Shown here piece by piece: positions 21,352 to 60,962 of a stretch of 64,000 nt of DNA. The stretch is from Neocallimastix sp. 'constans' (taxonomy: Eukaryota). Position numbers and translations under genes: made by a program. The stretch covers positions 124,001-188,000 of the forward strand of contig JBODTK010000015.1 of assembly GCA_050613775.1 (NCBI GenBank), read 5' to 3'. Every line of letters begins with the position of its first letter. Within the stretch, counting starts at the first letter, position 1. Below the pieces are notes generated by a model. That model worked only from the letters and a program-made list of their open reading frames with translations, was not told where the DNA came from and did no database searches.

Positions 21352-22390
21352 GAAATTTATCTAAGTTTGTATGCTAAAATTTTTTTAACTTTCTTTTACC
21401 TATGTATGGCATCTACAATGTGATATATTTTCAAAGTAAAACAGAGATGATATATTTTCGAGTTTTTACTTTTTTTTTTTTTTTTAAATAGTCTAATCTG
21501 AGCAATTTCACATTTCGCACGAAAGAGGGGGGAATGTTAAAGTTCTTTTTGAGAACAAAATAAAGGGATGTTGAGCTATTAATTCCCATTAGATAAATAC
21601 CTTCAATCCAGTATAAAAATCCTGAATTAACTAGTAGTTCTGGGGTACTTCTCATTCTTTCTTTGTAAGATCCAAAAATAGAGGTGCATAATACGAAACT
21701 TGCCCAAATACTATAAACAGAAAATAACCATTTTTTTTTTTTTAAAGGATAAGAATATAAGGATTCTATAAGAAATCCTTTTTTTATAGAATAAAGTGTT
21801 TTTCTAACGTTTTATTATTCATTCTCTGTATAATTAGTTTCAATTCTAAATCATTTGAAAATAGGTACACCTAATAGATATAGCAATTCGTTTTAAGTAA
21901 CACTTGACTTGAAAAATAAAAGGTAGAGTTACTGTTATTAAGAAATCATGAAACTTTCCCTCATACTACTAAATTTATACATTTATTAATATCAAATTGT
22001 ATTTTATTATTTTTAGCTCATATACTTTCTCAATTTAACAATCTCTTAAGTCGAGATCTTGTTGGAAGACATAACACAATGTCATCTGTAAAGATATTTC
22101 TACAACGGGCATTTTATCACCAATAGAGGTTCTCATATTTATTACATTTATTAAAAATGTCATTAATAAACAAAAAAAAAAAAAAATTAGTGAGAAGGGA
22201 CAACCTTGAAGAACACCCATCATAATATTAAATGATTCCGATAATTGTTCATTAACCTTTACATAAAGCCTTGGAAGATAAGTATAAGATTTCAATAAAA
22301 TTATAGCATTTATCTCTGAGACCTAAGTGATGAATCTTCATTAATACATTATATATAAAGAGAAACTGACTCATACGCTATTTTAAGGTC

Positions 22391-22430
<40 letters not shown>

Positions 22431-24900
22431 AAGGTACCTATCTTTATTTTCAAATTTCCGTCCCTGAACATATGATTCTTAATTAAGTGTAAAGACTTAA
22501 ACATTCTTCTCGGTTACGAAAATCCAAAAATTGTTCTAGTCTAATAAATCCTTTTTATCAATTCCATATATAGTGATTCTATTAGTGATGTTTTTAGCCA
22601 CAAAATTTTTAACCCAGTATTGATAAGAGAAATGCCGCGATAGTTATTACAATTCGAAGGATCATCTTTTTTATGAATAGAAACTATTAATGAGTTATTC
22701 CATGTTTCTTTGGAAAATCACCATTCCAAATACCGTTGATTAAGGCCTTGAAACATTTAAAACAAGATGAAATATTACTATTATTTTCACTAGATTCTTC
22801 TGAATCATCTTTTACCGGGGAATCAAAGCCTTGAAGAATTTCATTGGAATCCCTATCAGTACCACAAGCTTTAAAGTTAGGGGTAGATGAGATCACCTTG
22901 CTAAGTTCTTCATCGCCTAAATTTTGGTTAATTTCCCACAATTATTACGTTGCTTCAGATTTCCCAAATTCCTAAGTGCTTCCAGAAATTTTTAGTAAAC
23001 TATGACCTGAAGAATCCGACGCTAGGAATTTATAATGAGAATACCAAGCTTTTAATTTTTTCATCTGTGAAAGATACTAATTCATTATTATTATTATTAT
23101 AATTATTATTTAATAGGATGAAAGACCATGAAAGGATGGATAATTTTATTTAATTTTTTTTTTACGCATTTCCATACTTTTCTAATCTATCAATTTTTAA
23201 AGAGCTAAAGGAGCATCCAATTTTTTATCTAATAAAAATATTCTTTTTTTTTTTTTTTTTTCAAAATTCATTATATTTTTTTATATGAATTGATTCATAT
23301 AATCTATTATACGAGTCAACAATTTTTAACAAATTCATTGGGAATCTCATTCAAGATTTATAACACATAATTTATTTATACTTTTTAAAAAAGTTTTACT
23401 TTTTGACCATAATAAGTTTTATGGGACATTCTAAACATTGATTTTCTTATTTCTGTTGACAATATAATCGATAAAATCCTTAACAATAGAATTAGTAGTG
23501 ATGATGAACTTTTTATCAATACTATCTGTTGAAAGTTCTCCATTTCCAAATTCTTCCCTAAGAATCTCAAATTTATTGTGATCACATTCTCAAGTTCAAA
23601 ACATTTATACCTATCCCACCTAACAAATTTTTTTTTTGACAAAAAAAAAAATGATAGATATGTGATAGTTCTCTTGCAATAAACAACGAGGGGTTTAAGA
23701 TCAGATACAGAAGGATAGTCAACAAAAATAAACACTTAATATTTTATCCAGTATACTTTAGTTAACTAAACGTATGATCAATATCTGATGAATATTTACC
23801 TCTAGTCCATATAAAAATTGGTGAACCAATTAATCGGGAAGAATAAATTAGTTACCAAGATTACTGTGGGTCAATTTGTTTTGTAAATCAAGGGGGGGCT
23901 TATGTTAAAAGTTTCCAAGAAGAATATATGGATGATTAATGTGATTTCCAAGGCATGTGAAAACTTCAGAAAATGCGTATTGGACTTATAATGAATGTTT
24001 CTTAGTGGGGAATTTAAGCATTACCTACAGAACACTTAAAGTAATTCCATAGATGATAGGTTGTTTAAAGACACAATATGAGAATAGGAATTATCTTCAA
24101 AAAGACTATTTGACACGAGATATGATACCCAAGATATAAACCTCTGCAATATTGGCGTATTTGGATCCATTCTTTTCAGGAAATTATTTGTAGTTGGGAA
24201 GTATTTACCTTACAAAGATATCTATCATCTTTGGTTCCATTACCTATTTTCTGAAAGCAAGATAATGGTTTTAAAAGTGATATAGAAGTATTCAATACTA
24301 TCTCTTTTCACAAAATTTCATCCATTGGTGTTTCAACTAAGAGAAAAAGGAAAACTTTTCTGTATTAGAATGAGAAATTGGAATTTGAGAGATAAGATTA
24401 AGATATATTGGGAGTATTGGGTTCATGATTGGCATTTCATAGCATTTACTAAATTAGTTGAACTGGAATTGGCTGAGTTTATATTATTGGAAGTATTTTT
24501 TGGATATTAAATTTTGATTTTAAATACTGAAAAAAAAATCTTATGATTCCATTTGGAACATCCATAATATGAAAATTCAATTCCTGATATTGTTTTTTTT
24601 TTTTTTTTTTCAAATATTTTTTCAAATTTTTCGTGGTTGAAATTTGGAGTGTATACTTTAATTCTGAAGAAACTATCATTGAATTTAGTAATTTTTTTCA
24701 CTGACAAAATATTATCTTTAAATTTTTTTCTACATCTAGAATGAATTAAATTCCTTCATTTTTAGCGTTGGTCCATGAGTGTATACCCCCCATATAAAAA
24801 TTAACCTTGTGTTGTTAAAAGATGTTCCATAACAGCAGGAAACCCCCCGTTAAATATCTTTTCTATAATGAACAACAAATTACAAAATGATAAAAATGAA
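20286..24900 (-). mobile_element. Decayed non-LTR retrotransposon (APE endonuclease plus RT)
   Basis: Endonuclease remnants LLGNFN, DIDH, SVSDLKPL; RT remnants KACGTD, YRGISLIN, GVLQGCPFS; many frameshifts. Ends approximate. Confidence 0.85.
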
Positions 24901-35959: not shown

Positions 35960-37430
35960 AAGAAATATAGTTAAAAGCTTTTGAAAAAGAATTAAATAAT
36001 ATGAAAAGAATGAAAGTTTTTTCTGTTATTGGTGAAATACTGAAGAATCCAAATATTATTTCAACTAGATAGGTACTTAAATATAAAAAAAATTCCTAAG
36101 GAAAAATGATTAAATATAAAGCCAGATAAGTAATAAGGGGATTTAATCAAGTATACGAAATTAACAATAATAATACTTTTTCTCCAACACTCAAACAGGA
36201 TATTTTTAGAACAATAATTGCAATCACAGTTCAAAACAATTTCAATATTCACCAGATGGACATTAAAGTCGCTTACCTAAACGCAAAATTAGATGAAGAT
36301 AACGTATTGATGCCGGAGGATATAAAACGGAGGATATAAACCGAAAGGGATTTTGTAAATTGAATAATGAATTATACGGCCTAAAACAATCTGGTAGAAT
36401 GTGGAATGAAATCTTAAAAAAGGTATTGCTGGAACTAAACTTTAAAAGATTCATAAGTAAATTATGTGTATACATAAAAAAAAGATAAATATATTAATAT
36501 AAACTATTTACTAGCTGTATAGATCGAAGACATAATCGTTACAGGTACAAAGGATGAAATAATTAAAACTAAATGTTCAATTATGAATAATTTTAAAGCT
36601 AACGATGTAGGCGAAGTTAATTTCAAAATAGGAATTAAGTTTATAAAATGTAAAGATGGCTATTTGATTTATCAAAAGAAATATTTGAAAGAAATATTAA
36701 ATAAATTTATCATTGGTAAATATACTCCAGTGTCTAATACATTGAAAACACAAATTTAAAAAATAAGAAATCTAACATAACTAAATACAAAAAAACTTAT
36801 AGGGTCTTTATTGTATTTAGCCATTAGTTCAAGACCAAATATACTATTATCCGTAAATAAAACCTCCAGAAAGTATGAAGACTGGTATAATGTTTTAAAA
36901 ATATTTAAATATCTCAAGGGTAACTCTAATTATGGAATAAAATTTTCTAATACTGATAATTTTAACTTAAATGTTAATGTCAACGCTGATATAGGTAAAG
37001 ACAAAGAAATAAGAAAATCCACTATTCAATTCATAATGTTTTTTAACTCGGCTCCTTACAAGCTGGTATTTTAAACGTCAACATTATGTTGCAATTTTTA
37101 CTACTGAAAATGAGTGCTACGGAATTCACGAATGTGTAAGACACTGCCTTTGGTATAGGAATGAATTTAAAGAACGTAGACTTAAACATGATGCTATCAA
37201 TAAATGCAGATAACAAAATCGCAATTTATCATTGCGAGAAAGAAACAATTAATCCAAAATCTAAACACGTTGATTTACGTTATCATAGTATAAGAGAATG
37301 AGTCATAAGGAAATATATTACAATAAAATATATAAAATCTGAACATCTTTTGTCTGACGGAATTACAAAGTATCTAAACTCAACCTAAATGAAGAAATTT
37401 AGAAATAACATTTTATATCAATTTTACTGA
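35960..37430 (+). pseudogene. Ty1/Copia RT-RNase H remnant
   Basis: HQMDIKVAYLNA, LYGLKQSGRMWN, IGSLLYLAISSRP, KSKHVDLRYH; multiple disruptions. Confidence 0.9.
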
Positions 37431-37448
37431 TCTTAAACTTTAGGGGAG

Positions 37449-37666
37449 TGTTAGAAATAAAGTTTTATATGTTATATTAAATCTTGTATAACTTAAAATA
37501 ATATATATTTGTTATACTAAACCATTCATGTACAATACAATACAATGTATGATTCATTGTAGCATATTGATGAATGTATATCACGTAATTATATATCTAC
37601 ATTAGTTAACCAAATATCTTATACGTACATTTTTTATTTTTATTTTTTTTTAATATATCATTAACA
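37449..37666 (+). repeat. Copia 3' LTR
   Basis: PPT TAGGGGAG at 37441-37448, then TGTTA...TAACA. Confidence 0.75.
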
Positions 37667-37952
37667 AATAATTTTAATAAATAATATAATAAATAAAGTT
37701 ATTTAATAAATTTTTTTTTTTTTTTTTCGTTTTTTATCAATAATACTTTTTTTATTTTTAATTTTTTTCTATAAAAATTTAAAATAAAAAATATATACAA
37801 ATATCAAATTGTTTAGGTAAGGAATTGAAATTATTTTAATCATTAAAATAATAATTGGTAAAATAGTAATTTTTTTTCTTGAAAATGCTTCTATATTACA
37901 TTATATTTTAAAAAGGTTTATACTATATATATATTAAGTAAAATTAACATCA

Positions 37953-38813
37953 ATGACAAAAAAATCAAAAAATATAAATGACGGTACCAATATTACTACC
38001 ATTAAAAATGAAAGTAATATTGATTCCGATAAAAAAGCTGAAATAATTCAAGATAAAGTAGGCCAATTATACAAGAAAATAAACTTTTTGGAAAAAATAA
38101 CTCAATATTTTTTCTATATCAATTTATTAATTGTATTATCATTTATATTTCATATTCAATTTAAAAATTGGTTCATTCTTCTCCATATTTGTTTCAGTAT
38201 TATTTATAATGTATTATCAAAATATATCGATCTTTATTTAAAAAACAATGTAGAAACAGAGCATAGAAAAACTTTTATTAAAAATGCCCTTAATGCCAAT
38301 ATTACAGAAAATAATTCTACCAACAATTACTATAATAATAGCGAAAAAGAATCCATAAAAAAAATGGGTTTAAATTGTTTCGAAAGTTTATTATTTTCCG
38401 AGTTTATTGCAAATAAAATGATTCGGGAAGAATTTTTGAAAACGACAGGTTTAGTTTTAATATTTATTTCCTTAGTCATAAGTACTCATAATTTATTAGA
38501 TTTTACCCTTTTAATAAGTCAAGCTTTTCTTTCACTTGAAAAACTATATCTATTTATTAAACTACTGTACTTCAAAAATCATGTCACCGTACTCTACTCT
38601 GATATATATTCTTTGTTTGTCACTTCACGTCCAAAGAATGATCAGGTTTTAATAGCAAAAATTTTAGATATAACTATGAATTATGAATGTTTAAAGTATT
38701 TTTGTAAAATATCACTTTCTTCTCGCATATTCAATAAATATAATTCAGCACTATCGAAAGAATGGGATGATATATATCATAAAAAAATAGAAAGTACTAA
38801 CGCTAACCAATAA
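37953..38813 (+). CDS. Intronless 4-TM protein (286 aa), similar to bacterial CBASS-associated 4TM effectors; paralog 1
   Basis: Intact ORF with 2+2 hydrophobic helices and motifs RK.FIK, YYNN, MG.NCFE, YECLK, SLSSRI, EW; clear paralog at 40191. The family call is from memory. Confidence 0.75.
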   Translation: MTKKSKNINDGTNITTIKNESNIDSDKKAEIIQDKVGQLYKKINFLEKITQYFFYINLLIVLSFIFHIQFKNWFILLHICFSIIYNVLSKYIDLYLKNNVETEHRKTFIKNALNANITENNSTNNYYNNSEKESIKKMGLNCFESLLFSEFIANKMIREEFLKTTGLVLIFISLVISTHNLLDFTLLISQAFLSLEKLYLFIKLLYFKNHVTVLYSDIYSLFVTSRPKNDQVLIAKILDITMNYECLKYFCKISLSSRIFNKYNSALSKEWDDIYHKKIESTNANQ

Positions 38814-39330
38814 AATAAATAGTCAAATATCCAAATCCTTCAAAAGAAATAGAATATTTTTTTCAAAAATTAAATTATTATAAAGTTTCAATAATAAAAA
38901 CATAAAAAGCATACAAATATTTTCTTAAAAAACAATAAATAAAAAAAAAAAAAAAAAAACTTAGATCATATAATATATATATATATTATTTGTTTATATC
39001 TATAATACTCAAATTTAAAAATAACAAGTTATAAATAATTATATATAATAATATATAATATACCTTAGAATATTTAAGTTTATAGAAATTATAACTGTAA
39101 TAATATTTATTGTAATAGAAGTGATAGGTGTGGTAATAATAAAGTGTTGTTGATATTTGATTATTTTATCGAGGAATTTTACAATAATTATTTTAATAAC
39201 ATTATAAAATCATCATTAAGTTTGATTTACGATATTAATTTATGTTTGAATAATAAAAATTATTTTATATTAATTAAGGTTTGAATTTTTTAATTTATAT
39301 CATATTGATTTATAAATTCCCAAATAAATG

Positions 39331-39730
39331 ACATTTCAAGGACATTTCCAATATTGTACTACCCTAATTTTAAATTTTAGATTTTTTAGATTAAATCCTT
39401 AAAATTATATATAAAAATGAAAACATAAAAATAAAAAAAGCAATAATAAAAATTATTATTATTATTATTAAAACTATATAAAAAAAAAAAAAAAAAAAAA
39501 AAAAAGAAGAAAGGGATATGAAAGAAATATAAAAAGTCGTTTTGTAAAAAATAGAATTAAGGTTTGAAGATTTCATTTTATATCATATTGTTTTATGATG
39601 CCAAAATGACCGTCCGGCATTTCAAGGACATTTCCAATATTGTACTACCCTAATTTTCAATTTTCAATTTTTTTTTTAAACTAAATCCTAAAAATATAAA
39701 AATAAAAAGAAATAATTTTTGTTATTATTA

Positions 39731-39785
<55 letters not shown>

Positions 39786-39820
39786 ATAAAGGAAACATAG
39801 AAAAGTCTTTTTTATGTTAA
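39331..39820. repeat. Diverged tandem duplication (period ~286 bp) between the 4-TM genes
   Basis: CATTTCAAGGACATTTCCAATATTGTACTACCCTAATTTT is identical at 39332 and 39618, with similar downstream sequence. Confidence 0.85.
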
Positions 39821-40190
39821 TATATAAAAAATAATAATAATAAAATATAACTTTTAAATAATTATTAATAAAAAAAAAATTAAAATAAAATATCATTAAA
39901 TAAATATTTATAAATAATATATTATTAATATTATTTTCGGTTATTTTAATATAAAATATTATTATATACCTAATCACATAAAATATATATTAAAACAAAT
40001 GTTTAATACACCTGTTTCTATCAATCTCCACAAACACAAAATAAAAGAAATAGTAATAGGAAAAAGTTAAATAAAATTCAATATCTATCTAACATTCAAT
40101 ATTTTATAAGATATTTTCATTTATCTATACATAAAAATATATACTAACGATAAAAAGAAAAAAAAAAAAAAAAAATTTATTTATTTTCAG

Positions 40191-41033
40191 ATGTCAAGTC
40201 CACAAAAAAATACTTTAAAGCATACTCTGTCTTGCCCTGAATTAACAGTTATAAATCTACCTGAACCAGAGAAAAGTGAAGAAAAAGTCGATGAAGTCAA
40301 TAAATTGTATAATAGAGTAAATATTTCAGAAAAAATTGCCAATGGTGTATTTTTTATTAATTTAATAGTATCCGCTATTACAATTTTTGAATTCAAATAT
40401 CAAGATTTATTTTTCATTATAAATATTATATTCAGTATAACGTATGTGGTACTTAGTAATGTTATTGATATTTACTTTAAAAATAGAGCTGAAAATGAAC
40501 GAAGAAAATCGTTTATTAAAGAATCCTTTAACGTTAACCTTACCAAAAGAAAAACGTATAAATATTATAATAATGACGAACAGGAATCACTACGAAAAAT
40601 GGGAGTAAATTGTTTTGAAAATTTATTTTTCACAAAATATATTGCTAAAAAAATGTTAATCACAGAAAGTATAAAAGTTTTTATTATCGTACTCTTATAT
40701 ATCATTCTGTTAATTCAGGTAGAAAATTTAGAACTTTTAGTACTTATTACCCAAACTGTATTTTCTTCAGAGTACTTCTTCAAGTATATCAAATTTTTAT
40801 ATTTTAAGGTTCATGTAACCCGTATCTACCAAAAATTGTTCGATATATTTGTCACCACTCATGCAGAAGATGATAAAGTTACTAGAATTAAAATATTGGA
40901 TGCTGCTATGGATTATGAATGTTTAAAATTTTATTGTAAAATATCTCTTTCTAGTAGAATTTATAACAAATACAATAACAAACTTAACAAAGAATGGGAT
41001 GAATTATATCATTCATCTATTGTATATCATTAA
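40191..41033 (+). CDS. Intronless 4-TM protein (280 aa), similar to bacterial CBASS-associated 4TM effectors; paralog 2
   Basis: DEV..Y, AE.ERRK, T..YYNN, G.N.FEN, TQTVFS, LD...YE..K, S..Y.K.N..L..EW. A TTTTCAG acceptor-like site lies immediately before the ATG. Confidence 0.8.
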   Translation: MSSPQKNTLKHTLSCPELTVINLPEPEKSEEKVDEVNKLYNRVNISEKIANGVFFINLIVSAITIFEFKYQDLFFIINIIFSITYVVLSNVIDIYFKNRAENERRKSFIKESFNVNLTKRKTYKYYNNDEQESLRKMGVNCFENLFFTKYIAKKMLITESIKVFIIVLLYIILLIQVENLELLVLITQTVFSSEYFFKYIKFLYFKVHVTRIYQKLFDIFVTTHAEDDKVTRIKILDAAMDYECLKFYCKISLSSRIYNKYNNKLNKEWDELYHSSIVYH

Positions 41034-41693
41034 TATATCTCCTTTAAAATTCTCCATTCTTTTTTTTTTTTTAATAAATATATATTTTATTAGAAAAAAA
41101 TCTTTAATGATTATTAATAATATAGACAAGAATTAGAATAAAAAAAAAAAAGATTGGTTCTATAATCAATATAAATAGATAAGTAAGATGTTACTATCAT
41201 GTATATTTTTTAATCATAATTTTATCATTCATATTTATTATGAGAATTAATATTCAACCGTAAAAATGTTATTGTAATGCTCAATAATATTTAAAAAAAT
41301 TAATCCTATTATAATCTCTTTCTTACTTATATAAATTATATTAATTTAATGAAAAAAAAAATAATAATATACTGTAATTGATAATACATATAAAATAATA
41401 TAAAAATAAACATTATAATAATGAACAAATTTTATTTTATTTTATATAATTTTATTTAATATTTTTAAAGATAATTTAAAATGAGATTTTTTTTATTTAC
41501 TATGCTTAAAAAATATTGAATTTATTTGTATTAACTTTAGTGGATATTTGTTGCTATATAAATATTATTATAAGTATTAATGATATATTCGATTTTTATA
41601 CTATTTTGTTTTGACCAAATTTTTTTATTTTTTTTATACTTGACTTTATCTTTTAATAAATAATTCTTTTTTTTTCAATATATATTTGAAATG

Positions 41694-42190
41694 TGTTACA
41701 TTTAGAAACGTGGCTTATAAATTAAAATTTAATTTGTAATTCAACGCCCCACATTTTTATTTTTTTTAAATCATTGTAAATAAATAAATAAATAAAATTA
41801 GAAATAAATATAAAGGGTTAATTTTTTTTTCTTTAAAATAACAAAAAAAATTTTTTCATAAGAGCATTATTTATAATTATTAACAAAAAAAAAAAATAAT
41901 TGAATAAAATAAATAAAAATAAATAAAAATAAATAAAATAAATGAAAATAAATAAAAATATATAAAATAAATAAAATTAAAATTAAAAAAAAATAAATAA
42001 AATAAATAAAAAAAAATAAAATATTAAATTATAAAAAATTAAATTTAATAAATTATTAAAATTTTTTATTGATTTATTTAAAATTTAAGTAATATTATTT
42101 ATTTATCAAAAACAAAATAAGCCACATTCATGTGAACAATACATTGTAATACGCCACTTTTCATATAAAGTCACGTTCCGAAATGGAACA
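41694..42190. mobile_element. MITE with ~27-bp imperfect TIRs
   Basis: TGTTACATTTAGAAACGTGGCTTATA versus the reverse-complemented end TGTTCCATTTCGGAACGTGACTTTATA; related ends at 55304-55640. Confidence 0.8.
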
Positions 42191-42279
42191 TTCCCATTCC
42201 CCCTTTATTATATAATATGACTAAAAAAGACACCATACTAGCTGTGGGCCTGAAAGGGTTGCATTAATATTGTAATTTA

Positions 42280-42753
42280 ATATATTTACAAGGGAATTAC
42301 TAGCATTTGAGTGCGTGATTTCATGTGTCCATGTACATACATATTTTACTTGTGATGTAGGATATATTCTACTAAATTATAATCTTTCTGACGTTTAGAT
42401 ACATATTCTACTTGTGATGTAGAATATATTCAACTAAATTGTAATCTTTCTGACGTTTAGTTTAGTACTAATCTCTATAGGTTAGGTTACATTGTCCTCA
42501 CTTCAAAGGGAAGTTAAGAACTGGAGAAGCACTCCAAGAAAGTATACTTCAAAAATTCTCAGGAATAATGATAGGCATGGCAGAGCCACGATGCTGAACA
42601 CTCGGTAGGGTCGTCCAGTAGGGACAATCATGCCTCTATGGAAGTGTGCAACTATCTCATTATTCCCACAACACCAGAGAGGGGGGTGGGGCTGAATCCA
42701 AAGGTGGTTCATGTCGGAAATGAAATAAATAAAAAAAATAATTAAAATTAATA

Positions 42754-43664: not shown

Positions 43665-44320
43665 TATTGTAACGAATCTTAAAAAATTAGAAATTAGAAT
43701 GCTGGCATAGTGGTTAGTCACTATGACCTCAGCCTGAACCACTAGGGTTTGACTCACACCTTTATTAAAATTTTATATCATTTAAATTTTAAAGAATTTT
43801 TATACTTCATTTCTGTATTTGTTTCTGTATTTGTTTCTGTATAAATTTCTGTAAAAATTAACAAAAGAAATTCTTAGAAATTAATAGAAACAAATCAGAT
43901 AGAAATTCTATTTTAATTTATCTTTTATCATTATTTCCTTTAGATTCTTTTTAACCGAAAATAATCAATTTTTATGAAACTTTTTAATGATTTTATGGTT
44001 TTAAATTTTTATGGATTTAAATTTTGAAAAACTATAAATAGGAGTGAATTTCGCAGCCAAAAAAAAAAAAAAAATATTCTAAAAATTGTGTTTTTATTAA
44101 TTATTGAATTAATTAATAAGTAATTCGAAATATTACAATAATTAATCTTTATAATTAATATTTTTAAATTTCTTAATTAATAAAACTATATTTTAAAAAA
44201 CCAAATTACTTATTAATCAAAAAGTGCTTACCTATTGTGTTACACTCTTTAAAACACGGATATTCCAATATTCGTTACAATAAAAACACCACTAAACTAA
44301 GCACAATACCTTTGCACTTT

Positions 44321-44525
44321 TACTCTTTTTGGAACCCCGTTAAGGAATCCCATTTTCTACTACTATTTTTGGAACACCGTTAAGGAATCCCATTTACTAC
44401 TATTCTTTTTTGGAACCCCGTTAAGGAATCCCATTCTCTACTACTCTTTTTGGAACCCCGTTAAGTAATCCCATTCTCTATTACTCTTTTTGGAACCCCG
44501 TTAAGGAATCCCATTTTCTACTATT
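44321..44525 (+). repeat. Five ~40-bp tandem repeats in the chromovirus leader
   Basis: Unit TACTCTTTTTGGAACCCCGTTAAGGAATCCCATTYTCTAC. Confidence 0.93.
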
Positions 44526-44758
44526 TTTGAAACCACTTACCAAGACTATAAATTTTTCTACCAAAATTCATGCATGAATTTATAAATTCAATCGGAACCC
44601 TTGAATTTTACTATATATTAAAATTATTAATATTTTCAATAATCCATATAGCCATCCTTGAAATTAAAATTATTTATATTGAAATTAAATATTTACTTCT
44701 TCTAATAATTAATTATATTGTATATTTATTATTCAATCAAAATTAATGATTATAATAA

Positions 44759-45135: not shown

Positions 45136-50114
<4,979 letters not shown>

Positions 50115-55694: not shown

Positions 55695-56690
55695 AAAGCA
55701 TTATTTATTAAATATTGGTATGTCACACCAAATCCTGTTTATAAAATGTCAATTTTATAAACAGAATTTGAGTATTTAAATAAATTTTATCCCATAACAA
55801 TTTCTAATACAATAGGAAAATATTGTGCATTTATTTTATTTATCATTATAGCCAATTATGATAGATTCAATAGTATTACCGTTAAATTAAGATTTTAGAA
55901 AATATTATAGGATTTTATATCCTGATTTTTGGATATTTTCGATTTTTTGGAACTTTTCTTATGTTAGGATCATGTCATGTTGGTTTTGGATCTGTCACGG
56001 TAATAAAATGTCATTTAAGAGTATTATTATTTTCGTTTAGTGTTTCATTTAATATAGTACCATATATTTGTATGTTAAACAAAGCAATACATATAAAAAA
56101 TGAATTATGGAAAAAGATTAAAAGTCATAGTTATTTTATTTTAGAAAGTGTTCTTTTAATTGATAATCTATTATATATGTTAATATTAATGAATCCTTTT
56201 ACTATTAATAAAAAGATGTCAAAAAGTGGAAAAAATTATGAGAGGTGTAGAGCAGTGGGTGGTACTAAAATATTAACTTTCTATATCATAATGGTATTTG
56301 AATCTTTAATTGGTATCATAACATTATATTTAGTATATATTAAAAGAAATGATGAACATTTAAAAAATGATTTAAAATTTTTAATAATTTCATTGAATAC
56401 AACACTTCTCTGTATAATTCTTATTATTTTAATGGATATTGCTAATATTAATGATAATGTCACTAAATTTATTCTATTTGAAGCATTTTTATACTCTTTT
56501 TTCAATTTCAAATCATTTCATCTTTTTTATTGTAAGACCAATTTGACTATATAATAGAAAAGTTGATGAAGATCAAGAATATATGAAAGCTTTCTGGGCA
56601 AGTGCAATAATTGTTTTGAATAGTAGTAATCAAAAATCAAATTCAAAAAAATATCTAACTCACAGAATGTTTAGATTTCTATAATAAAAA
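55695..56690 (+). pseudogene. Partial inverted pseudogene copy of the last exon of the SBP-7TM receptor
   Basis: ALFIKYW..PNPVYKMSIL, then a deletion, then DFWIFS, VTVIKCHLRV, SGKNYERC; frameshifts; 5' exons absent. Confidence 0.85.
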
Positions 56691-57026
56691 AATCAGTCTC
56701 ATACAAATATAATAATAAATCCTTAAAACTAATACTTATTTAATTAAGTAAATTTTAATAAATACCTTTAAAATTTAAAAATGGAAACAATAAAATTTAT
56801 TGAAGTAGTAATAAATTAATATAATTTTATTGTTGTAATAAAATAATATAATTATATATTAGTAATAAAATATTTTATTATTTAATATTTATATTTATCA
56901 TTCATTATATATTTATTATTTATTTATTTATTTATTTTTTATTTATTAATATTATTTTTTATTTATTAATATTATTTATTATTTATTTATTTATTATTTA
57001 GTATTTAAATTAATTTATTATAGATT

Positions 57027-57061
<35 letters not shown>

Positions 57062-57574
57062 AATTAGTTTATTGGATATCCAAAGATTTTAAAATTTATA
57101 TTTCCTTTATAATGAAATAAAAAAGAATCTTGAACACCATGAAAATAATAATATAAAAAATATTAATATTAAATAATAATACATAAATATAAATAAAATT
57201 GAATTAAATAATAATATTAAATAATAAATAAACTATTATATAAAGATATAATCGAGTTAACGTTAATATTATTCATAATATGTAATAAAATAAAGAAAAA
57301 AAAAAAAATTTTTTTTTTTTGTATAATTTAGATATAAATTATTAATATAGTTTAATATAAGAAATATTATTATTTAATATTATATACATATACATTTATA
57401 TTATTACTTTTAATTACTATTATAAAACCTATTATTATTACTATTATTATTATTATTTTAAAAGTTAATTTTTCAAAGTGGTATTTGATAAAGTATTATT
57501 TTATTTTACTTTCTCTTCTTCTTCTTCTTCTTCTTCTTCTTATTTTTTTTTTTTTTTTTTAAATTAAAGTAGAA

Positions 57575-60500
57575 TTAATTATCAGTAGTATTGACTTTTA
57601 TACTAGTATAGGATTGACTATTTACTCGAGAATTTACTTTAGAATTAGACATAGCAACTGGTTTATGATTCAATAGATTCTGTGAATTAGCATTAGTAGA
57701 AAATTTAGAATAAATAGGTGATTTAGAATTCATTTTTTGATTATTACTTCCATTAATACAAGAGAATGTATTGGAACGGAAAGCTTTCAAATATTCAAGT
57801 TCTTCATCTATTTTTTTATAACGTAACCATAATGGTCTTATAATGAAAAAGATGAAATGATTTGATATTGAAAAAAGAATATAAAATACTTCAAAGAGAA
57901 TAAATTGTTTATTATAGTCATTAATATTAACGGTATCTACTATAAAAATCATGATTAGACTGAGAAGAACGGTGTATAATGAAATTACTAAAAACCTCGA
58001 TTCTTTTTTTAAATACATGTCATTTCTTTTGATGAAAGCTAACCATTGTGCTATTACTATAATTAATGTTTCTAATATCATTAAGAGATAGAAACAGAAC
58101 CTATTAAGTCCGCTCCTTGATTTACATCGGTTGTAATTTTTCCCATTTTTAATGAATATTTTATCGATAGTAAAGGGTTCCCTTAATATAAACATATATA
58201 ATATATTATTGATTAGGAGAACACCCATTATCACAAAATAACTTTGCTTTTTAATTGCTTGCCACAGTATATCTTTTTTATGAATGGATTTATTGAACAT
58301 GCAAATGATAGGCATTAAATTGAATGAAAGACCAAAAGAAAAGAAAAATACTCTTAAATGACACTTTATTACAGTGACAGGTCCATAACCAACAAAACAT
58401 AATCCAAACATAAGAAAAGTTCCAAAAATAGAATATATCCAGAAATCAAGGTATAAAACTTTGTAATATTTTCTTAAATTTGGAATGAATGGTAATGCTA
58501 ATGAAACAACTAAAATTACTGCAATGATGCCTAAAATAAACCCAAAAGCTTTTCCTATTGAATCAGAAAATGATATGGAATAAAATTTATTTAAATTGTC
58601 AAATTCATTTAATGCTTCTATGATGGGTTTATCTCCATATAAATATTCGTAGATGAAGGATCTGAATTCTTTGGAATAGTCATCATATGGATAATCCGGT
58701 GGAAATTTTCTTGATACAAATTGAATACTTTTCATAAATTTGCAGTCAACGACTTTACATATATCATCATCATCATATAAACTTGGAATGGTAGAATATT
58801 CCAGAGTTTCTAAAGTAATATTTTTTCTAAATTCTCTTGATGTAACATATTGTAGTATTTTAACTGATGCATTTATTTTTTTATCTCCTATATCATTACC
58901 AATTCCTACACTTTGACCTCCTATGGTTGAACCTGAAATTCCCTTTTTAATTCCAGGTAAAATCGACATTTTATAAACAGGATTGGGTATGACATTCCAA
59001 TATTTAATAAATAATGCTTTTCCATCATTTAATTTTCCAAGTGTATATAACGTCCCTTGTTGAAATTGTTCATCTTTTAAAATATATAATATTTAAATAT
59101 TTATTATATTATATTATAATATATTATATTATTATATTATATTATATTGTATTGTATTATATTATATATATATTAAATATGATAAAAATTAAATAATAAA
59201 ATAGATTTAGTATATGCTTTATTATTAATTTTATTTTATTTTATCTTTTTTTTTTTTTTTTTTTTTTTTTTAGTTTTATACTAATAAATATTTTCTAATA
59301 TTTAAAATAAATTGATTTAAATATTAAATAAAAATAAAAATTAAAAATAAAATAGATAAATAAAGAAGATAAATAAATGAAATGAAATAAAGTATAATAT
59401 ATATATTTATGAATATATAAAATAAAAAAAAATTATATAATATATATTCAAAAATATATTTTACTTGATGCTATTTTTTCTTTCATATATTTTAATTTTT
59501 CTAATGCGTTAATCACAGTCTCATTAACAAACGACGGAAAAGGTGAATTAACTGAATCTCTAAAGGAATATATATATTCAAATAATGAAACAGTTCCTGT
59601 ATCAGTATCTATATATTATTTATATATATATATATTTTGTTATTTAGATTAATATTTATACTTATATTATTTAATTATTTATTTTTTATTTTTTCTTTTT
59701 TTTTAATATTTTATTAAAAAAAAAAACAAAAACTATATCTATATCTATGTCTCTCTCTATATCTATATCTATCTATATCTATATCTATATCTATATTTAT
59801 ATCTATATCTCTCTCTCTATATCTATATCTCTCTCTCTATATCTATATCTCTCTCTCTATATCTATATCTATCTATATCTATATCTATGTCTTTCTCTAT
59901 CTTTATATCTATATCTATACTATGATATTATGATAATATTATTACTGTTGACAGTTTAACAAAAAATTAAACTTACCATCATATAAACCATTAAATGAAA
60001 TTAAGTCCTTATCATTATCTTTTTCCCTATCCATGATATATATACTGGTTTCAATTAATTCATCCCATGTTTCTGGGATTGCTTTATCATATTTTTCTAA
60101 AAGATCCATATTACAATATAAAACATCATAACTTATTTTTATTGGCTTATTTTTTTTTTTTTTATGTAATTTTTTATAAAATAGTCATTTTAAATTATTT
60201 TTTTTATAAATTGTTAATTATTATATGTGTATATATATAATTCTTTTAAGATTTTTAAATATATAAATAAATAAATAAATAAATAAATATATATATATAT
60301 ATATAATAAATATAAAATATTTACTAATGAAACCCATTTATCATTAAAAACACAGAGTTGAGGAGTAATTCCTTCAGAATATATATCTATATGTTCTTTT
60401 GGTAAATATTCCTGCAAATTTATAAAATAAGGTCCAAATCGACTATTGTATATATATTCAAAAAAATACATGTCATATTTTCTTTTTTTGCTTTTTAAGA

Positions 60501-60962
60501 GTTTCTCCAACATTAAGCCATAATCTCTTACTTCCGCTGATGCATTATAGGGTGTAAATAAATTTAAGACTAAGGTGATATTTAAATTATTTTCTTTGGA
60601 ATATTTATTAAATTTATCAACAAATACATCATAGAATGAATTTAAGGTGTACGAAAATGCTATAGCATTGATAACAATGGCATATCCATATACTTTTCAT
60701 TAATAAAAAAAAAAAGAAAAAGAAAAAGAAAAAGAAAAAAAAAGATTAATACAATTATAATTTTTTTCTTTTATCTTTATATTTTATTATATATATATAT
60801 ATATATATATATTTTTTTACTCTATATATTCATATATAATAAACGAATATATATTTATATTTATATATTTTTTATTCTATCTTTTTATAATAGATTAGTA
60901 TTTATTGTAGACATACAAATATATAATAAAATTAATATTGAAACATAAAAATATTTAACCAT
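57575..60962 (-). CDS. Extracellular solute-binding domain fused to a 7TM (class C GPCR-like) domain; exons 60962-60917, 60692-60325, 60145-59977, 59608-59465, 59073-57575; 741 aa
   Basis: Signal peptide MVKYFYVSILILLYILYGYA; SBP motifs LYCNMDLLEKY..IPETWDELI and GSTIGG..VGI; about 7 TM helices; four phase-compatible GT-AG introns. Confidence 0.88.
59733..59918. repeat. (CTATAT)n and (CT)n intronic microsatellite
   Basis: Direct observation. Confidence 0.9.

Follow-up and report, generated by a model that had tools for sequence, protein, structure and literature searches.

When a eukaryote keeps a CBASS effector as an orphan, what would gate it? In bacterial CBASS a cyclic oligonucleotide is produced by the cyclase, and the infected cell is halted by a membrane effector. 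The question is raised by two neighbouring genes of the gut fungus Neocallimastix sp. 'constans', for which the cognate bacterial operon can be identified. The window that we analysed, 64,000 nucleotides of contig JBODTK010000015.1 (positions 124,001 to 188,000 of the forward strand), carries gene 1 at 37953..38813 and gene 2 at 40191..41033, both on the forward strand. Their open frames encode membrane proteins of 286 and 280 amino acids, which open reading frame and PADLOC profile together assign to the CBASS 4TM family. The two proteins are 47% identical over 258 aligned residues (E 3e-71), and are thus the intact same-strand paralogs that the first-pass annotation had described. In 200 shuffles of positions 37001-42500 the longest open frame reached 113 amino acids. 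There is no additional copy of the 4TM genes within the 64-kb window.

The pair sits among mobile elements. Upstream lies the relic of a broken Copia-type reverse transcriptase (36130..37301, forward strand; RVT_2 matches in 3 of 5 scanned fragments), downstream a Ty3/gypsy chromovirus-type element that retains an open frame of 1185 amino acids (45136..50114, forward strand). Both are context and lie outside the module. Farther away are 7tm_3 genes and a cyclin gene, which has introns, as had been said of the neighbouring host genes. The transposons are neighbours of the pair and at most its putative carriers. Named Neocallimastix records are one to two residues away from the window's two proteins: gene 1 clusters with ORY52132.1 of N. 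californiae and gene 2 differs by one residue from KAG4099414.1 of N. lanati.

That the proteins resemble bacterial CBASS membrane effectors had been proposed in the annotation, and the profiles bear this out. Both match the PADLOC '4TM' effector model PDLC00719 (gene 1 E 1.6e-47, gene 2 E 2e-59) from position 2 to 251 of 256, that is, over its full length, and a profile search returns 748 cluster representatives at E ≤ 0.001. Pfam and NCBIfam give neither protein a family name; a HEAT match (E 0.018) was discarded as weak. The proposed Pfam label S_4TM (PF18159) has to be dropped: its HMM matched neither protein and, at E 0.01, none of 146 aligned family members. S_4TM has an Atlas feature score of 0.89, and a profile-profile comparison with five S_4TM proteins gave a weak, N-terminal match (7% probability; a reversed control reached 0.4%). 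Judged by sequence, S_4TM is at most a remote relative.

Structure searches added nothing clear. For the 4TM proteins a sequence search of the PDB returned no match at E 10, the best Foldseek match in the PDB had E 0.19 and the best BFVD match E 0.08, and a VIA fold search found generic helical bundles (best Z 6.6 and 6.2). Matches this weak are no evidence for a new fold, nor do they mean that relatives are absent. Five of the 18 top viral fold matches are named SLATT, every one at E of at least 0.08, and no family member has a Pfam match to SLATT. Profiles detected no internal 2+2 repeat, reversed controls scoring higher. Relatives were found in none of 29 candidate stretches of viral contigs; a single phage record matches the 4TM proteins weakly.

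The nearest bacterial relatives are from gut Bacillota, with 43-50% identity at best, and they are found where the annotation had placed them, next to SMODS/CD-NTase genes. A CD-NTase lies within 2 kb of the 4TM gene in 40 of 45 GTDB loci, and 32 of 43 proteins scanned around bacterial homologs have a SMODS match. In gut Bacillota operons the cyclase comes first and the 4TM gene follows after a gap of a few bases; in Bacteroidota an E2-like gene stands between them (both operons tested). Plasmids gave 13 matches, and in all four that we opened, including Lactococcus lactis pMRC01, the neighbour is a nucleotidyltransferase gene. Among 12 metagenome loci, two match the window itself at 98-99.6%; of the other ten, eight have a cyclase and two are cut just upstream. 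Even the nearest cyclases of solved structure are distant (best E 4e-13), and hence the product nucleotide cannot be inferred from them. The lactococcal CBASS tested in PMC11381338 was considered as support for the pMRC01 operon and set aside, as the effectors named in the available part of that paper are SLATT and SUa-2TM.

Five GTDB loci have no CD-NTase within 2 kb. Two end less than 40 bases upstream of the 4TM gene, one holds a split 4TM gene and one a match of just 39 residues. In the remaining locus, which is surrounded by type I restriction genes, an intact 4TM gene adjoins a reverse transcriptase of the AbiP2 type, and SMODS was found in none of the three genomes that carry the last three loci. 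Hence, the family is not bound to CD-NTases alone. This weakens the case for a cyclic oligonucleotide as the trigger, yet it fits a trigger that can be re-wired.

How did such a gene come to be in a fungus? Named eukaryotic matches come from gut fungi only: Neocallimastix, Piromyces sp. E2, P. finnis and Anaeromyces robustus. In a quick tree of 136 rows, nine rows form one clade with support 100. In a more careful tree of 46 rows the 11 rows of the fungal clade (five of them assigned to it after the first tree) again form one clade, with support 100/100, amid gut Bacillota; the other 35 rows span the first tree. The fungal clade divides into a g1-type (100/100) and a g2-type (95/87) sub-clade. 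Because the tree is midpoint-rooted and the sister group of the fungal clade is not settled, the direction of transfer rests on the nesting of this clade within a wide bacterial diversity. GC3 does not separate the fungal genes from AT-rich donors and so does not distinguish host from donor. We consider a horizontal origin from bacteria very well supported, as the annotation had suggested. Likely, there was a single gain from a gut Bacillota bacterium, followed by duplication before the three genera split.

The duplication is old. Constraining the tree to join gene 1 with gene 2 was rejected (p-AU 0.0002), which rules out a recent duplication. The paralogs have diverged by dN 0.44 and dS 1.69, the latter near saturation. 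Adjacent accessions of the g1 and g2 type are found in N. californiae (ORY52132/33), A. robustus (ORX75833/34) and Piromyces E2 (OUM61481/82), and in the latter two species both members are on scaffolds of equal length. As the tandem pair is common to three genera, it must be older than their split; the gut-fungal crown group is dated to 66 ± 10 Myr in the accessible portion of PMC6712302. The idea that the pair is recent cargo of a transposon island is therefore not tenable. A third, more diverged Neocallimastix paralog is located on a different scaffold. Gene 2 is 72-74% identical to its ortholog in Piromyces E2 (74%) and to the closest further ortholog, gene 1 is 63% identical to its Anaeromyces ortholog, and the inter-clade average for gut fungi is given as 73% in the part of 10.1101/2022.07.04.498725 available to us. 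Gene 2 hence evolves at about the genome-average rate, not faster.

Gene 1 also looks like a fungal gene in its transcript. The seen part of a non-coding first exon (37787..37816, forward strand) is followed by a 99-nt spliceosomal 5'UTR intron (37817..37915, forward strand) with GTAAGG..AG ends, which is skipped ahead of the start codon in two of four runs (X2 and X6). The short sides of this joint, 23 and 28 nt, are below the usual caution level of 30; the same junction is given by a loose contig end in run X15 and by the opening bases of contig L046. The region is present in 18 of the 24 sequencing runs listed, 12 being recorded as RNA. Coverage was taken from four runs, all of them assembled into contigs, which give neither level nor strand. 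The coding region is covered in all four, and gene 1 is transcribed in all three RNA-labelled runs examined; the Copia relic (36900-37396) has RNA cover in none of the four. Gene 1 has eukaryotic gene structure and expression. The genes had been called intronless, which is right for both coding regions and wrong for the leader of gene 1. Gene 2 is probably transcribed too, given word shares of up to 0.64, more than the share of gene 1 (about 1 kb of 3.8 kb). Contig L047 crosses gene 2 unspliced and could be DNA.

These data also dispose of the suspicion that the pair came from contaminating bacteria or was recently inserted by a transposon. One could argue for it from the intron-free coding regions, the transposons on either side, the identity to gut bacteria of up to 50% and the uninformative GC3. 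The spliced intron of gene 1, the adjacent pairs of three genera, whose orthologs lie on scaffolds of fungal DNA 80 kb to 1.5 Mb long, and the single fungal clade refute it, and unlike in the bacterial operon there is no cyclase gene upstream. The chance that this explanation holds is negligible. What might have spoken against a CBASS origin was not what we found: the best matches are not widespread, vertically inherited eukaryotic proteins, the bacterial homologs are not unlinked from nucleotidyltransferases, and gene 1, at least, is expressed.

Have the fungal proteins kept what the bacterial ones have? Taking as conserved any column that 70% or more of the 135 non-fungal rows share, we obtained 29 columns. 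Of these, 27 are retained by gene 2, 25 by gene 1 and 18 by the third paralog; the 135 other rows keep 26.1 ± 2.0 on average. The soluble motifs quoted by the annotation are present in both proteins. In gene 1 and its Anaeromyces ortholog a His replaces an Arg that is 95% conserved (R104 of gene 2), and conserved residues around TM2 and TM4 are altered in the g1-type and unaltered in the g2-type. The conserved residues may be structural rather than functional.

For the proposed layout of 2+2 membrane helices the evidence is mixed. In both proteins three hydropathy peaks clearly exceed the cut-off of 1.5 and the fourth helix stays below it; two bacterial relatives have four peaks. The fourth, weaker segment is polar and contains the conserved Q188 and S192. 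The predicted structure (pLDDT 91) is all-helical, and long helices cover each of the four segments. The middle loop has 64 residues, 15 of them Lys or Arg, and the loop charges fit cytosolic ends. We infer that the middle loop and the C-terminus are cytosolic, which is where most of the conserved residues sit. Residues 1-20 of gene 2 are modelled with a pLDDT of about 50, and this N-terminal extension is likely disordered. The extensions had been described as unrelated; they do differ between the paralogs, but that of gene 2 holds a fungus-specific motif, KHxLSCPELTV (residues 10-20; 40218..40250, forward strand), common to Piromyces E2, Anaeromyces robustus and two further orthologs. The motif resembles a phospho-serine 14-3-3 site.

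One difference from the bacterial situation is the cyclase. There was no CD-NTase match in the six frames of the 64-kb window, in line with the annotation. A protein search for CD-NTases is uninformative for fungi: among the best 120 of 2952 matches none was named fungal. The EukProt survey in PMC10732462 counts zero cGLR, OAS and eSMODS for N. californiae, Piromyces E2 and A. robustus, and the domain table in the available part of that paper, which covers annotated proteins only, has no CD-NTase row for these three fungi. For STING, two tables of its supplement disagree on the gut fungi (0 against 1), and this column carries no weight in our analysis. Going by these sequence surveys, a cyclase appears to be missing from gut fungi altogether.

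It is of course conceivable that the pair receives its signal from a cyclase encoded at another locus, one that has diverged or escaped annotation, which would make it a complete fungal CBASS. The effectors retain their conserved residues, and eukaryotes have gained bacterial CD-NTases before (eSMODS; accessible text of PMC10732462). Given the three zero counts in all three gut-fungal proteomes and the empty six frames of the window, we think that this is improbable.

Our own reading, which we hold tentatively, is that the gut-fungal 4TM pair originated as a bacterial CBASS effector and is likely still a nucleotide-gated membrane channel, its partner cyclase apparently lost. Both ends of the proteins and the long middle loop would face the cytosol, with D34, Y40, R104-R105, YYNN, E143, Y242-E243-K246 and W269 as a candidate nucleotide site. 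On binding a nucleotide, the proteins would assemble into a leak or open one, and the ions lost through the membrane could arrest growth locally or cause death, much as CBASS does. The nucleotide might come from another fungal enzyme, or gut bacteria might be its source and the fungus take it up. Gene 2 would likely have come under fungal control by way of its N-terminal motif, and gene 1 would likely have changed its ligand or now be a partner subunit. A transcribed and conserved fungal copy would hardly be a pore that is always open, which suggests that gating persists or that the protein has been tamed. Several points count against gating: no cyclase was found and hence the known trigger is absent, gene 1 has lost the conserved Arg to His, its orthologs share just 63% identity, and the third paralog keeps 18 of 29 conserved columns.

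One could go further and see the pair as a cyclase-free receptor-channel that senses cyclic oligonucleotides of the bacteria around it in the rumen. It would be the fungal equivalent of STING, picking up signals of bacteria or of phage infection and answering with membrane depolarisation or cell death. We consider this more specific proposal unlikely, if attractive.

Alternatively, the pair has the same origin and was co-opted: the proteins might be ordinary membrane channels, transporters or scaffolds, with neither nucleotide gating nor a role in defence. Several results fit such a role, namely the lack of a detectable cyclase, the transcription of gene 1 in each RNA-labelled run and the near-average rate of gene 2. 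Gut-fungal transfers are also discussed as metabolic in 10.1101/487215, whose main text contains neither "defense" nor "phage" nor "nucleotidyltransferase", and whose supplements could list the pair. Under co-option one would not expect the family-wide conserved cytosolic residues to be kept at the bacterial level, nor extra paralogs to arise and diverge. Defence genes often spawn diverging paralogs. On balance we regard co-option as a serious if somewhat doubtful explanation.

The tandem arrangement allows another interpretation, in which one paralog forms a pore and the other is an inhibitory or recognising subunit, the pore being released without any nucleotide. Pairs of the pore and inhibitor type are known from fungal heterokaryon-incompatibility and toxin-antidote loci. 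The tandem order is retained in three genera, and the g1-type has changed conserved residues near TM2 and TM4 that the g2-type has not, both of which would fit. Allorecognition genes, however, are not known for near-identical alleles, and the alleles in the Neocallimastix records compared differ by just one or two residues. Tandem duplicates also often remain linked without interacting. Such a division of labour is therefore quite unlikely in our view. Still less can be said for an antibacterial protein delivered to gut bacteria, a use that the first-pass annotation had put forward and for which we found no support. Beyond the homology with a class of bacterial cell-killing effectors little speaks for it: the first 48 residues of gene 2 contain no hydrophobic leader, the anatomy is that of a polytopic membrane protein, and no delivery module was seen in the window. 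We give it very little credence.

If the gated channel is the right reading, these fungi have a receptor for cyclic oligonucleotides, which would provide a handle on defence in the rumen or on sensing across kingdoms. If it is wrong, a defence pore has been tamed into a household protein. In either case a 4TM effector, of a family that is structurally unsolved, has been retained by fungi over tens of millions of years, apparently without a cyclase. Among the titles and abstract openings that we searched, no paper pairs CBASS with Neocallimastix and none describes the pair. In the text of 10.1101/2022.12.12.520048, which applied DefenseFinder to eukaryotes, the terms 4TM, chytrid and Neocallimast are absent; its supplements could list the pair. 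The available parts of PMC11381338, PMC13064643 and PMC10686824 treat effectors of families other than 4TM.

The closest known system is type I CBASS with a 4TM effector, in which PDLC00719 stands beside the cyclase PDLC00769, as in MAGs of gut Clostridia and Bacilli and on pMRC01. The fungal pair shares with it the full-length match to the model, the conserved residues, 43-50% identity to the closest relatives and, apparently, the helix layout. Unlike this system, the fungal pair has no CD-NTase alongside nor, apparently, anywhere in the proteome, and it consists of two old tandem paralogs with N-terminal extensions and a 5'UTR intron in a fungal host. The E. coli CdnD12-4TM operon is a two-gene CBASS with a 4TM effector that, in the accessible part of 10.1101/2023.05.21.541620, shows cyclase-dependent toxicity and phage defence; its effector may be of the same 4TM family. 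Pfam S_4TM proteins are likewise SMODS-linked membrane effectors with four helices, and differ in that their HMM matches neither fungal protein. SLATT 2TM effectors are also CBASS-linked helical membrane effectors present in eukaryotes, with members in giant viruses, and the SLATT family has a fungal branch. Finally, eSMODS, algal viperins and blSTING are bacterial defence genes gained by eukaryotes (PMC10732462), and they have in common with the fungal pair that a CBASS-linked gene passed into a eukaryotic lineage. Judging from the part of that survey available, its scope is cyclases, STING and viperin only, and it raises as a question whether STING-like receptors operate without CD-NTases. 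Where the published texts at hand report that eukaryotes acquired parts of CBASS, these are cyclases, STING-like receptors and phospholipases, whereas the gut fungi have kept a membrane effector, of another family, as a conserved pair.

The proteins are incomplete in the public gene models ORY52133.1, KAL6630727.1, ORX75833.1 and OUM61482.1. Models of gene 2 that encode 265 aa omit a 45-nt in-frame GT..AG stretch (window 40443-40487), and the uninterrupted 280-aa form is present on 48 contigs. The stretches missing from the public models are likely to be mis-called introns, or else they reflect rare splicing. Immediately 5' of the gene 2 ATG, a pyrimidine tract and AG (window 40176-40190) resemble a splice acceptor; a contig crossing gene 2 (L047) is unspliced at this site.

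A third Neocallimastix paralog (P0057 / ORY80607.1) has the family's YYNN motif replaced by a poly-Asn run and retains 18 of the 29 conserved alignment columns. Despite this divergence it is intact, and it is found on 22 contigs.

Between gene 1 and gene 2, a segment of about 285 nt is tandemly duplicated (39260-39830), with 95% identity over a 56-nt core. Farther along the window, six copies of a 40-nt unit (44281-44568) lie upstream of a Ty3/gypsy chromovirus-type element (45136-50114), which has a 1185-aa gag-pol frame and a chromodomain in a separate frame. Beyond it (55886-60696), two stretches, one on each strand, encode 7tm_3 (class C GPCR-like) sequence; a further exon-like frame is also found upstream of the minus-strand stretch.

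In a Streptococcus genome (L025:4316-6765), an AbiP2-type reverse transcriptase (PADLOC match, E 1e-180) lies 17 bases upstream of an intact 4TM gene of the same family as the fungal pair, both within a type I restriction cluster, and a SMODS search of that genome gave no match. This arrangement is possibly an RT-4TM defence pairing.

At other loci (L027, L030, L032, L033, L039, L041, L042 and L061) two CD-NTases lie around a single 4TM gene; on a Rhizobium plasmid this arrangement is taken from the annotation. The order in several Bacteroidota examples is cyclase, E2-like gene, 4TM, second cyclase; one two-cyclase locus has its second cyclase upstream on the opposite strand.

The Lactococcus lactis dairy plasmid pMRC01 confers phage resistance. 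It carries a CD-NTase and 4TM operon (L058:3209-4756, pMRC01 21584-23131), adjoined by an ISS1S element. The operon is a candidate source of this resistance, and would offer a test system that is ready for use.

Gut fungi may hold more antiviral genes in common with bacteria than the 4TM family, since supplement rows of a EukProt survey record viperin, another antiviral gene common to bacteria and eukaryotes, for N. californiae and Pecoramyces (PMC10732462).
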